Notes under the pieces: model-generated
The model's input: the letters and a program-made list of their open reading frames with translations, nothing else
Databases searched by the model: none
What the model was told of the DNA's origin: nothing
Source of the DNA: a virus
Taxonomy: Duplodnaviria; Heunggongvirae; Uroviricota; Caudoviricetes
Direction: 5' to 3' (one strand)
DNA: 9,834 nucleotides
IMG/VR virus record: IMGVR_UViG_2526164631_000019
Made by a program: the position numbers and the translations under genes
Part shown: positions 7,514-9,834 of the stretch, piece by piece
Layout of the letters: each line of letters begins with the position of its first letter
Position numbering within the stretch: the first letter of the stretch is position 1

Positions 7514-7539
7514 TTTTCTTAAACGTTGGTTTAGGAGAA
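7514..7539. repeat. Crossover site 1 for the invertase (hix/gix/cix-like 26-bp site)
   Basis: TTTTCTTAAACG TT GGTTTAGGAGAA. Its reverse complement TTCTCCTAAACC AA CGTTTAAGAAAA resembles the hix consensus TTCTTGAAAACC AA GGTTTTTGATAA. The central dinucleotide is at 7526-7527, 68 bp from the invertase start codon. Confidence 0.8.
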
Positions 7540-7884
7540 GCGGCAAAACGGAATGTGGGCACAGGAGATAATCAGATACCGGATATGGGAGCATTCGCTT
7601 CTGGTTCGGGATGGTTCAGGCTACCAGGTGGATATATTGTTCAGTTTGGCACTTTTGCAGGAAACACGACCCGCTTTATCAGTGGACACTTCCCTATACC
7701 ATTCCCTAATCAGCCGATGGTTTCAGTCAGTGTTATGTCTGATGCCGTTCAGTCAGACCCGTCGATTCCTGCCCCGCAGGTTTTGTCTGTAAATTTTGAA
7801 CATATCAGTAATTCAGCGTGGCGTGTGGCAACCAGTGATATCTCACAGCAATACAGATTCAGTTATATTTCGATAGGACGGTAG
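7528..7884 (+). CDS. Silent alternative tail-fibre C-terminal cassette (no start codon of its own; expressed only after inversion)
   Basis: An open frame starts at the crossover core and encodes GLGEAAKRNVGTGDNQIPDMGAFASGSGWFRLPGGYIVQFGTFAGNTTRFISGHFPIPFPNQ...QQYRFSYISIGR, ending at TAG 7882-7884. The first codons (GGT TTA GGA GAA = GLGE) match those just inside the site in the expressed fibre gene. A tail-fibre assembly gene follows 2 nt downstream. Confidence 0.7.
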   Translation, partial: GLGEAAKRNVGTGDNQIPDMGAFASGSGWFRLPGGYIVQFGTFAGNTTRFISGHFPIPFPNQPMVSVSVMSDAVQSDPSIPAPQVLSVNFEHISNSAWRVATSDISQQYRFSYISIGR

Positions 7885-7886
7885 AA

Positions 7887-8327
7887 ATGCAGAAATATAT
7901 TTTCAGTGCCGATAAAAATGCGTTTTTCCCTGTGGAGCTTAAAATCGCTTATCAGGAATCCGGCGAATGGCCCGATGATGGAATCGAAATTGACGACACT
8001 GTTGCTGCCGAATTTATGAAGGAAGCACCAGAAGGAAAATACAGAGGTGTCATCGACGGAATGCCTGCATGGATTGATATTCCACCGCCAACTCATGAGG
8101 AACAAATTGCCGCAGCCGAACTGAAAAAGCAGCAATTGATTAATCAGGTCAACGAATACATAAACAGTAAGCAATGGCCTGGTAAAGCGGCGATTGGTCG
8201 CCTGAAAGGTGAGGAACTGGTGCAATATAATTTGTGGCTGGATTATCTGGACGCACTGGAACTGGTCGATACTTCCGGTGCGCCAGATATTGAATGGCCT
8301 ACGCCTCCGGCAGTTCAGGCCAGATGA
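7887..8327 (+). CDS. Tail fibre assembly protein (Tfa), partner of the silent cassette
   Basis: 146-aa ORF with AGGA 8 nt upstream of the ATG. The C-terminus LVDTSGAPDIEWPTPP is the Tfa-type motif also found in the convergent Tfa (TDTSTAPDVIWPELP). Its position directly after a fibre cassette fits the role. Confidence 0.85.
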   Translation: MQKYIFSADKNAFFPVELKIAYQESGEWPDDGIEIDDTVAAEFMKEAPEGKYRGVIDGMPAWIDIPPPTHEEQIAAAELKKQQLINQVNEYINSKQWPGKAAIGRLKGEELVQYNLWLDYLDALELVDTSGAPDIEWPTPPAVQAR

Positions 8328-8892
8328 CATCCGGTGCGGTGCTGGTATCTGTTGCCGTCACCGCGTCAATATAATCCAGCACAGCGTTAAGTCGGGTGTT
8401 TTCTGGCTGCGTCAGCTTCCGCACGGCCTGTAATTTCAGTTGAATCAGACTGATGGAAGCCATTGCAGCATCAATCAGCGACTGGCGCTTTACTTCTGCC
8501 GCGTCTAGTGCGGCGCTATGCTGTGCCTCGGTATCCGTCACCCATTTCTCACCATCCCATTTATCGTATGGCGTTAACGGTGAAAGCGTGACATAACCGT
8601 CTTTGATGGCACCGATATAATCCACTGTAACAGCTGCGCCATTTTCGATTGAGTAAACAGTCTCATTGCGGTGGTCTTCTTCATGGCTCCATCCCTTACC
8701 CGTAAATACTGCCACTCTTCCCGGAATGTATTCGCCCGGGTCAATACCAGTGGAACAAGCGGGCATACTTACGCCAGTATTAATATATTCATCAGACCAG
8801 CCAGTATATTCATACGTAACTGCCTCATAATAAAAACAACGCATATTACCCGGTACTGTAGCCAGCCCATTTTCATCAAAAACAGGTTTCAT
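8299..8892 (-). CDS. Tail fibre assembly protein (Tfa), partner of the currently expressed fibre C-terminus
   Basis: 197-aa ORF whose ATG overlaps the fibre stop codon by 1 nt (TAATG). The C-terminal motif is TDTSTAPDVIWPELPEA. It lies inside the invertible segment. Confidence 0.85.
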   Translation of the reverse strand: MKPVFDENGLATVPGNMRCFYYEAVTYEYTGWSDEYINTGVSMPACSTGIDPGEYIPGRVAVFTGKGWSHEEDHRNETVYSIENGAAVTVDYIGAIKDGYVTLSPLTPYDKWDGEKWVTDTEAQHSAALDAAEVKRQSLIDAAMASISLIQLKLQAVRKLTQPENTRLNAVLDYIDAVTATDTSTAPDVIWPELPEA

Positions 8893-9834
8893 TATTTAGC
8901 CCTCACTAGAAAGTTAAATGCAATATTTCGTGGGCGGGTTTCTGTACCTACATTTCCACTAATTTCACCATAACGTTTAACGCTACGAGAGCTAATAGCT
9001 CGTAGTGAGGAAGGCACCCTAAGACCGGGTTCGTCCGTTTTAACTATTCCCCCGTCACCATATGTAGCCAGTATTCCTGGGTTTACTCCTTCCCGTGTAC
9101 TTCCTGCGACAAGCCCGTCCCCCGTCCACAATTCCATATTGTGTGCATGATCCATAATTGTGTGTGATTGCCCTGAAAGTAGGGTACGTCCGACATCAAT
9201 CCCGCGTCCGTCATCCCAGATACGAATGAAATCACCGCGTGCGTCAGGTAATGCCAGCGCCGGAAACACTTTCGCCAGCACAGGGTAATCAGTGGCAGAG
9301 AATTTCGCGCCGTTGAACTTCAAAAACACCATGCTGGACCAGCTATCGATTACGGTATCTGGCATTGCTGCGGACGGCCAGAAGAACGGAACGCCAATAG
9401 CTGGAGCACCTTCTCCCAAACCAAGGTAATCAAGAACTCCCTGAGTGCTGGTTTTACCAAGAATGGCACGTCCAACACTTGTCAACGCGGTTAACGCGGC
9501 ACGATCTGCCCCTGTAAAATATGGGAGTTTATCTGCTGATGTAGCAAGCTCCGCCAGCGCCGTCAGGGTGGCATCCTTCGGTTGCTTACCCGCAAGCGCG
9601 TTAGTCATGGTGGTCGCAAAATTCGGGTCATTGCCCAGCGCCGCAGCCAGTTCGTTCAGCGTGTTCAGTGCATCAGGTGACGAATCTACAAGTGCGGCAA
9701 TCGCAGCCATAACGAAAGCCGTGCTTGCGATCTGGGTACTATTAGTCCCCTGTGGCGCTGTTGGTGTTGTTGGCGTTCCGGTCAGTGCCGGGCTGTTTAA
9801 TGGTGCTTTCTTGTTCGTTTCATCCATTACCGCC
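8892..9834 (-). CDS. Tail fibre protein (P2 gpH-like constant region fused to variable C-terminal domain); 5' end beyond right edge of window
   Basis: The frame is open to the window edge, so the Met at 9827 is internal. The constant part (DETNKKAPLNSPALTGTPTTPT...NTLNELAAALGNDPNFATTMTNALAGKQPKDATLTALA) resembles P2-type fibres as recalled. The part downstream of the crossover site contains a tail-collar-like motif (LPDARGDFIRIWDDGRGIDVGRTL). Confidence 0.9.
   Translation of the reverse strand, partial: AVMDETNKKAPLNSPALTGTPTTPTAPQGTNSTQIASTAFVMAAIAALVDSSPDALNTLNELAAALGNDPNFATTMTNALAGKQPKDATLTALAELATSADKLPYFTGADRAALTALTSVGRAILGKTSTQGVLDYLGLGEGAPAIGVPFFWPSAAMPDTVIDSWSSMVFLKFNGAKFSATDYPVLAKVFPALALPDARGDFIRIWDDGRGIDVGRTLLSGQSHTIMDHAHNMELWTGDGLVAGSTREGVNPGILATYGDGGIVKTDEPGLRVPSSLRAISSRSVKRYGEISGNVGTETRPRNIAFNFLVRAK
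9411..9436. repeat. Crossover site 2 for the invertase, inside the fibre coding sequence
   Basis: TTCTCCCAAACC AA GGTAATCAAGAA is inverted relative to site 1. The half-site inside the segment matches the reverse complement of site 1 at 11 of 12 positions, and the core AA is identical. On the minus strand it encodes VLDYL-GLGE with the core in codon positions 2-3, the same phase as at site 1. Confidence 0.8.

Follow-up and report, generated by a model that had tools for sequence, protein, structure and literature searches.

A tail-fibre inversion switch, very probably of the Pin/Cin type, in a P88-like prophage of Escherichia coli

Switches that exchange the C-terminus of a tail fibre are a textbook class, described for Mu, P1 and e14, and are driven by serine invertases of the Gin/Hin/Cin/Pin ("Din") family. 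Inversion by these enzymes depends on Fis, negative supercoiling and a defined synapse topology. A cis-acting enhancer with two Fis sites lies in the 5' part of the invertase gene. In phage Mu, the G segment is 3 kb long and its two gix sites, with a GA/TC core, are near-perfect 26-bp palindromes within 34-bp repeats. The C segment of P1 is 4.2 kb long, including large inverted repeats, and the Min system of p15B, which is related to P1 Cin, has six sites. In Salmonella, Hin flips a promoter and not alternative coding ends, hin lies inside its own invertible segment, and the core of hixL is AA. The P segment of E. coli K-12, with its invertase PinE, belongs to e14, a lambdoid remnant. Sequencing and PCR have demonstrated inversion both of the e14 segment, which is related to the one described here, and, in E. 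coli E2348/69, of segments in P2-like prophages (PMC4272514).

The window, that is, the whole stretch of 9,834 nucleotides that was analysed (IMG/VR record IMGVR_UViG_2526164631_000019), very probably carries at 7514-9436 a Pin/Cin-type member of these tail-fibre switches, within a P88-like (Xuanwuvirus, P2-type) E. coli prophage. The earlier note had proposed a complete Hin/Gin-family inversion switch for the fibre C-terminus, and the sites, an intact invertase, the geometry and the in-frame cassettes were all found. It had also regarded the case as a confident identification with no novel mechanism, and we share this judgement: the window adds a member to a textbook class without a new mechanism. 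The features are as follows.

6840-6869, no strand: hairpin with a 12-bp stem, between the convergent gpU and invertase genes
6859-7458, minus strand: serine DNA invertase, intact, 199 aa; catalytic domain (residues 1-135) and C-terminal helix-turn-helix
7369-7440, minus strand: putative Fis-binding recombinational enhancer, proposed from homology; nt 19-90 of the invertase gene
7459-7513, minus strand: spacer from site 1 to the invertase start codon, with a ribosome-binding site and a conserved TGGCATCAT/TGGCATGAT motif
7514-7539: crossover site 1 (invertase-proximal), TTTTCTTAAACG TT GGTTTAGGAGAA, core TT at 7526-7527
7528-7884, plus strand: silent alternative fibre C-terminus (GLGEAAKRNVG...IGR), gp53-like C-terminal domain (Pfam Gp53-like_C, E = 5e-9)
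7887-8327, plus strand: tail-fibre assembly gene of the silent cassette, 146 aa (Pfam Caudo_TAP, E = 9e-34)
8299-8892, minus strand: tail-fibre assembly gene of the currently expressed cassette, 197 aa (Pfam Caudo_TAP, E = 1.5e-24)
8892-9422, minus strand: currently expressed variable fibre C-terminus, 176 aa from GLGE to the stop codon
9411-9436: crossover site 2 (within the fibre gene), TTCTCCCAAACC AA GGTAATCAAGAA, core AA at 9423-9424
9424-9834, minus strand: 3' part of the fibre constant region; the gene runs past the window end, with its true start about 720 nt beyond

The two 26-bp sites in inverted orientation around about 1.9 kb, as first proposed, were confirmed by a motif search and by shuffling. 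Site 2 and the reverse complement of site 1 were identical at 18 of 26 positions, including the unbroken 14-mer TTCTCCYAAACCAA. With up to 2 mismatches allowed, this 14-mer matched the 9834-bp window exactly twice, in the two sites and in inverted orientation; 0.10 matches were expected by chance, and none of 200 shuffles gave two or more. Aligned with each other, the sites have the same asymmetric core, AA, and the segment from core to core is 1897 bp long. The AAACC ending given earlier is confined to the inner 12-bp half-site of each site, which lies within the segment; the outer half-sites end in AAACG (site 1) and TTACC (site 2). Dyad identity between half-sites was 9/12 in site 1 and 7/12 in site 2. 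The same pattern of consensus-like inner halves and degenerate outer halves was present in P88, KL53 and P1, and the outer halves of IAL7250 were similarly degenerate. The site pair was absent from the 25 longest inverted repeats given by a general repeat search of the window, probably owing to its short shared arm.

Alignment with known sites placed both window sites with e14 pix and P1 cix (TTCTCTTAAACC AA GGTTTAGGATTG), which have the AA/TT core, and apart from Mu gix, which has the GA core. The sites of e14 are nearly identical to those of the window: of 26 positions, the reverse complement of site 1 differs from the pinE-proximal e14 site (TTCTCCCAAACC AA CGTTTATGAAAA) in 2, and at the other site both have the same inner half, TTCTCCCAAACC. 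A third crossover site, or an array of the shufflon kind, was also sought and rejected: the window contains just two copies of the motif, and so do the 43 kb of the matching genome around the locus, unlike p15B Min with its six sites.

The reading frames agree with the sites. The cores occupy codon positions 2-3, in GTT at 7525-7527 on the plus strand and in CTT at 9425-9423 on the minus strand, and each of these codons is followed by G-L-G-E. Because the inner half-site of each site encodes G-L-G-E, either orientation is in frame with the fibre constant region. An in-silico flip gave a single open frame across the junction and a predicted fibre product of 496 aa, against 554 aa in the observed orientation. 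Both the codon reading and the flip thus bear out the proposal of in-frame inversion at these cores. In the matching RefSeq record, the fibre CDS (L001 22093-23757) corresponds to window 8892-10556, and the full-length protein of 554 aa consists of 378 constant and 176 variable residues.

Inside the segment, two convergent cassettes lie on opposite strands, each with a fibre C-terminus and a Caudo_TAP assembly gene. The assembly gene at 8299-8892 shares 1 nt at its start with the fibre stop codon, and the 3' ends of the two assembly genes overlap by 29 nt, as in e14. The fibre tips are unrelated to each other in sequence: one has a gp53-like C-terminal domain, and the currently expressed one had no Pfam match at E <= 0.001. 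With the constant fibre N-terminus outside the segment and two in-frame C-termini, each with its own assembly gene, inside it, the layout is that of a host-range switch. We infer that a flip would alter the host range and give two receptor specificities. This pairing of fibre tip and assembly gene is common to P1 and the window. The e14 segment shares the GLGE junction motif and, over window 8172-8580, 89% DNA identity, whereas its cassette tips are largely unrelated in sequence. The cassettes of Mu are unrelated to those of the window.

The invertase beside site 1 was said to be intact, and the full-length ORF bore this out. It matched Pfam Resolvase (E = 6e-52) and HTH_7 (E = 1e-12) and, over residues 1-185, the solved Gin structures (PDB 4M6F/3UJ3, E = 1e-91). 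In the alignment with Gin, Ser9 and the VRVSTNDQ and DRLGRS motifs are conserved, and position 114 is the wild-type Met. Comparison with the characterised invertases, which the earlier note had suggested, gave 82% identity to e14 PinE, 75% to Cin and 72% to Gin; identity to the P88 invertase was also 82%. The bit score was 308 against Gin and 113 against gamma-delta resolvase. The protein is a small serine recombinase with a helix-turn-helix and is clearly closer to characterised invertases than to resolvases. It is also a mosaic, with 91% identity to PinE over residues 2-118 and 94% identity to P88 over residues 119-180, and its C-terminal DNA-binding domain is just 66% identical to that of PinE. 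Hin is of the same enzyme family, and its solved DNA-binding domain matched that of the window invertase with E = 1e-12.

The gene order, fibre-assembly / assembly'-fibre' / invertase, with the invertase directed away from the segment, is that of Mu. In P1, by comparison, it is the 3' end of cin that borders the segment, with cixL overlapping cin, whereas the invertase gene of the window has its 5' end towards the segment, as in Mu and e14. The distance of 68 bp between invertase and site 1, given earlier, is correct as the distance from the ATG (7458) to the crossover core; the edge of site 1 lies 55 nt away. In e14, Mu and P88, 67 nt separate the core from the start codon. The invertase promoter is probably located in the 7459-7513 spacer, and a consensus promoter scan of this spacer called none. 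At the other end of the gene, the hairpin at 6840-6869 is likely a bidirectional terminator that ends the invertase transcript.

The block at 7369-7440 is probably the recombinational enhancer, judging from homology. It aligns collinearly with nt 19-90 of cin, annotated as the enhancer in the P1 record. Its identity to cin, gin and pinE is 79-85% (cin 79%), and that of nt 91-400 is 68-73%. Synonymous codons were more conserved in the nt 19-90 block in all six pairs compared, nominally significantly in three, and coding constraint is not fully separable from this signal. When the five invertase genes were scanned with a degenerate Fis consensus, one 15-mer (nt 71-85) proved to be conserved in all of them. 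For the second site of the expected pair, about 48 bp apart, nothing in the invertase-gene scan matched the degenerate consensus used. The switch in the window would be expected to depend on Fis and this enhancer.

The inverted orientation, whose absence would have spoken against a switch, was looked for in other genomes. The sites, the frames, the geometry, and the family and integrity of the invertase can be read in the window itself, and nature supplies both states of the segment, with breakpoints at the cores. Both predicted post-inversion junctions were found as unbroken matches in other E. coli genomes, J1inv with up to 97.4% identity (242 records with at least 80% query coverage) and J2inv with up to 99.4%. 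The clearest pair was the near-isogenic prophages of KL53 and IAL7250: their flanks are collinear and 97.4-97.7% identical, and a 1905-bp segment, 98.0% identical, is inverted between them, with alignment switches at most 4 nt from the predicted cores. The window segment is 98.4% identical to that of KL53 and lies in the opposite orientation relative to the invertase. EC02 and DETEC-S589 belong to the same P88-like lineage as the window (fibre constant region 99.5% identical) and have the gp53-like cassette joined to the fibre, an arrangement also present in further genomes. The window lineage thus shows both states, one in 12A and the other in EC02 and DETEC-S589. This comparison between genomes suggests that the segment may flip actively in the window's own strain as well, whose genome has 6 places matching the query.

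We infer the following course of strand exchange. Dimers of the invertase (6859-7458, minus strand) would bind the two 26-bp sites, which would be paired, probably with host Fis on the enhancer in the 5' part of the invertase gene. Cleavage of all four strands at the 2-bp AA/TT cores would be followed by rotation of one half-site pair through 180 degrees, and the ends would be rejoined with 7527-9423 inverted. The 378-aa constant part of the fibre would always remain in frame with one of the two C-termini. In the present orientation, it carries the 176-aa tip and the 197-aa assembly protein comes next; a flip would give it the 118-aa gp53-like tip, with the 146-aa assembly protein next. A population of lysogens would release phage with two receptor specificities.

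General (RecA-type) recombination could in principle have produced the two orientations, as could cassette replacement by horizontal transfer, in place of site-specific inversion. The cassettes are indeed highly mosaic: many genomes pair one window cassette with an unrelated second cassette, and the switch module is also found on non-mobilizable plasmids of about 90 kb and in several phage genera. Nevertheless, the shared inverted sequence of just 14-18 nt is too short for efficient homologous recombination, between KL53 and IAL7250 a 1905-bp block of 98% identity is cleanly inverted and breaks at the 26-bp sites on both sides, and an intact dedicated invertase adjoins the segment in every case. 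We consider this origin scarcely credible. It is unlikely, though less far-fetched, that the architecture is intact and the segment no longer flips in this host, with the invertase inactive or unexpressed, the outer half of site 2 unbound, or the prophage decaying. The D, sheath and tube genes of the window, all essential for the tail, carry one frameshift each, at 340-400, 1862 and 2564. The invertase is chimeric, PinE-like in its catalytic part and P88-like in the part that binds DNA; the dyad symmetry of site 2 is 7/12, with a degenerate outer half GGTAATCAAGAA; and the spacer upstream of the invertase has no called promoter-like site. Against such a loss of function, the invertase ORF is full-length and its catalytic motifs are identical to those of Gin in the alignment. 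An identical protein, WP_000905084.1, is annotated in 12A, EC02 and GF31, whose segments are in different states. The site 2 sequence is likewise found at L001, L002 and L008, among which both orientations are represented. Moreover, the frameshifts are single-base indels, several in homopolymer runs, and may be sequencing errors, since the RefSeq record, otherwise near-identical, has D, sheath and tube intact. Other Pin-family invertases of the strain could also act in trans, given the 6 query-matching places, as PinQ acts on e14 (PMC12529663).

The frameshifts also bear on what the switch is for. If they are real, the prophage would make no virions, and the switch would be without a phage phenotype. 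The mechanism could then be the same and the benefit could fall to the host: a tail-defective prophage would keep the switch, and one fusion product, made inside the cell, would mask a surface receptor and block other phages. There is a precedent in e14, where StfE2, after PinQ-driven inversion, was reported to mask the receptor and block adsorption of other phages (PMC12529663), and the sites and the N-terminal part of the window invertase are closest to e14. On the other side, genes for the head, lysis, baseplate and replication make the prophage otherwise complete, active phages are known among its relatives, namely P88 and PhiSM (PMC6456863), and the frameshifts may be errors. A host benefit is very unlikely in our estimate. 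We give equally little weight to its strict form, in which tails cannot form and the intact switch would be kept for the cell, for example through a fusion that blocks phage adsorption, possibly flipped in trans by the genome's other Pin-family invertases. The reading we prefer remains a Pin/Cin-type switch of the phage fibre.

Escherichia phage P88 shares with the window the phage backbone and the order D, sheath to gpU, invertase, cassette', cassette-fibre, and the DNA-binding domain of its invertase is the 94%-identical part described above. Its module is different: P88 has Mu-type gix sites with a GA core, a Gin-like catalytic domain and Mu-like cassettes. A Mu-type module on the same backbone means that the switch module has been exchanged within one phage genus. 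The block from sheath to gpU, which adjoins the invertase, is inverted relative to the classical P2 order. A flip of this block by the invertase at a secondary site was considered and rejected, as neither block end has a gix-like site. A 19-nt imperfect inverted pair (960-978/7469-7487) was also discarded as a secondary site: it falls within the D gene, and many chance pairs are at least as good. Nor is this inversion particular to the window, since P88 and its relatives have the same gene order.

In RefSeq, the genes here are named recombinase family protein, gp53-like domain-containing protein and tail fiber assembly protein, and the switch itself is unmarked. There, the silent cassette appears as a gene of its own, and some loci that are flipped or assembled differently are labelled pseudogenes. 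Recognising the switch explains both kinds of annotation, as well as the 1.9-kb inversion differences between assemblies of related strains. It also predicts that lysogens would release phage with two adsorption specificities.

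The Hin/Gin-family tail-fibre inversion switch described in the earlier note was confirmed as an arrangement of sites and genes, and comparison with other genomes supports its interpretation as a module that would flip.

Features of the switch in the window
6859-7458, minus strand: serine invertase, 199 aa (Pfam Resolvase, E = 6e-52; HTH_7, E = 1e-12)
7514-7539: site 1, the invertase-proximal crossover site, TTTTCTTAAACG TT GGTTTAGGAGAA, core TT at 7526-7527 (plus strand)
7887-8327, plus strand: Caudo_TAP assembly gene, 146 aa, 3' of its own cassette C-terminus
8299-8892, minus strand: Caudo_TAP assembly gene, 197 aa, 3' of its own cassette C-terminus
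9411-9436: site 2, the crossover site inside the fibre gene, TTCTCCCAAACC AA GGTAATCAAGAA, core TT at 9424-9423 on the minus strand

Sequence inspection and a 14-mer search placed both inverted sites exactly at the positions first proposed. The reverse complement of site 1 and site 2 are identical at 18 of 26 positions, including the unbroken TTCTCCYAAACCAA. With up to two mismatches allowed, this 14-mer matched twice in the 9834-bp window, at the two sites in inverted orientation; 0.10 matches were expected by chance, and two or more occurred in 0 of 200 dinucleotide-preserving shuffles. A 43-kb stretch of the matching genome contained no third copy. The claimed AAACC ending holds for the inner half of each site only; the outer halves end in AAACG and TTACC (dyad identity 9/12 and 7/12). 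Site 2 thus has a degenerate outer half, although loci in both orientations carry the identical sequence. The invertase had been said to start 68 bp outside site 1; its ATG (7458) lies 68 nt from the core and 55 nt from the site edge. The distance from core to start codon is 67 nt in e14, Mu, and P88.

Both cores occupy codon positions 2-3, as had been claimed, in GTT on the plus strand and CTT on the minus strand. Because the GLGE codons directly follow both cores, the 12-nt inner half-site doubles as GLGE coding sequence. In-silico inversion of 7527-9423 produced a single open frame that leads out of the fibre constant region and on into the gp53-like cassette, in agreement with the predicted in-frame joining. 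The fibre gene runs past the window end; it encodes 554 aa in the matching RefSeq record (378 constant and 176 variable), and the predicted fibre after inversion has 496 aa. The two assembly genes are convergent and overlap by 29 nt. The silent cassette (7486-7884) carries an in-frame ATG ATG of its own, located at 7486 within the spacer that lies outside the segment, and PGAP labels it a free-standing gp53-like domain-containing protein.

Flipping was assessed by natural variation among E. coli genomes. Window 6800-9834 matches E. coli O111:H2 strain 12A at 100% identity. The inverted state, on whose absence the earlier note would have given up its claim, is present in other E. coli genomes. 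The two junctions predicted after inversion, J1inv and J2inv, have uninterrupted matches in other complete genomes, with identities up to 97.4% (242 records covering at least 80%) and 99.4%, respectively. The near-isogenic classical P2-type prophages of KL53 and IAL7250 give the clearest case. They share collinear flanks (97.4-97.7% identity) around an inverted 1905-bp block (98.0% identity), and at either end of the block the alignment switches no more than 4 nt from the predicted core. Each carries a full-length intact fibre gene, joined to a different cassette. Window 7523-9427 shares 98.4% identity with the KL53 segment but lies the other way round with respect to the invertase. In EC02 and DETEC-S589, of the window's own P88-like lineage, site 2 is identical and the fibre constant region shares 99.5% identity, but the gp53-like cassette is fused to the fibre. 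In GF31 the entire segment is flipped (2573 nt at 98.6% identity). The invertase protein WP_000905084.1 is identical in 12A, EC02, and GF31. Deep sequencing and PCR have demonstrated that the e14 P segment inverts, as do tail-fibre segments of P2-like prophages in E. coli E2348/69 (PMC4272514).

GF31 also carries a prophage deletion that starts some 50 bp short of site 2 (L003, the GF31 record, ~11096-11100), takes in the constant region of the fibre together with baseplate, lysis, and head genes, and extends as far as the capsid scaffold gene. The invertase is retained along with both cassettes, without a fibre gene to join.

Comparison with the Hin family bore out the invertase assignment. 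Residues 1-185 align with solved Mu Gin structures (4M6F, 3UJ3; E = 1e-91), and the Ser9 motif, DRLGRS, and wild-type Met114 are kept. Overall, the protein shares 82% identity with both e14 PinE and the P88 invertase, 75% with P1 Cin, and 72% with Mu Gin. Its residues 2-118 match PinE at 91% identity, whereas the DNA-binding domain (residues 119-180) is 94% identical to P88 and just 61-66% to Gin, Cin, and PinE. This domain looks Hin-like and aligns with the solved Hin domain (E = 1e-12). DNA homology with the classical P2-type module ends at window 7034, within the invertase gene. These alignments indicate that the invertase is a mosaic of PinE-like and P88-like parts. The gpU and invertase genes converge on a perfect 12-bp-stem hairpin (6840-6869, AAAACCGCTAAT ggtcag ATTAGCGGTTTT) that looks like a bidirectional terminator.

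The Cin enhancer is annotated in the P1 record at nt 19-90 of cin. The collinear block, window 7369-7440, shares 79-85% identity with its counterparts in cin, gin, and pinE, compared with 68-73% for nt 91-400. Synonymous codons are better conserved within the block in six of six pairwise comparisons, three of them nominally significant, and a single conserved 15-mer fits a degenerate Fis consensus. The block is likely a recombinational enhancer, which we regard as a candidate.

Reference sites were drawn from the deposited Mu, P1, E. coli K-12 e14, and P88 records. Alignment to them assigns the window sites to the pix/cix type, with the AA core shared by the e14 sites (TTCTCCCAAACC AA CGTTTATGAAAA and TTCTCCCAAACC AA GGTTTTCGAGAG) and P1 cixL (TTCTCTTAAACC AA GGTTTAGGATTG). 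In contrast, Mu has a GA core, and P88, of the same genus and gene order as the window, carries Mu-type gix sites with a GA core (L005, the P88 record, 8893-8918 and 11964-11989) and a Gin-like catalytic domain in its invertase. The closest relatives are the e14 P segment with PinE by sites and catalytic domain, and P88 by backbone and DNA-binding domain. The locus is a further example of a textbook system with no new mechanism involved, just as the earlier note had judged.

Against the near-identical 12A RefSeq record and P88, single-base indels were found at window 345-399 (D, +4 T's), 1862 (sheath, -1 A), and 2564 (tube, -1 G). Each of these essential tail genes is split into two frames, and all three are intact in 12A. 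Several fall within homopolymer runs, so the indels may reflect sequencing error instead of genuine decay. If real, the prophage would have no tails and the switch no phage phenotype. The sole less ordinary reading left by the evidence, a host-domesticated, PinQ/StfE2-like role of the switch in a tail-defective prophage, is very improbable in our view. PinQ acts in trans on e14 (PMC12529663). Because six places in the strain genome match the query, trans-acting Pin-family invertases are likely present there.

The window is part of a P88-like (Xuanwuvirus) prophage of P2 type, integrated close to raiA and clpB. Its sheath-tube-E-tape measure-gpU block (1101-6832) lies on the strand opposite to the D/ogr and fibre/baseplate genes and so is inverted with respect to the classical P2 order of KL53 and IAL7250, in which the sheath gene follows the invertase on the same strand. 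P88 and other Xuanwuvirus records have the window's order, so it is fixed in the genus; no invertase-type site was found at either end of the block. The same prophage carries a Com-family regulator beside a DNA methyltransferase, recalling Mu com/mom (10984-11932 of L001, the 12A record, outside the window), and a Hok/Gef toxin gene and ParM-type partition system.

The switch module is present also in classical P2-type prophages. Matches to the invertase and cassettes, reaching 97% identity, are also carried by ~90-kb non-mobilizable plasmids of E. coli (H131-H138), which by size alone we take to be P1-like phage-plasmids. Because P88 has a Mu-type module at the same position and the window's module recurs in these prophages and plasmids, the switch is an exchangeable cassette, and entire switch modules are swapped between otherwise similar phages such as P88 and that of the window.
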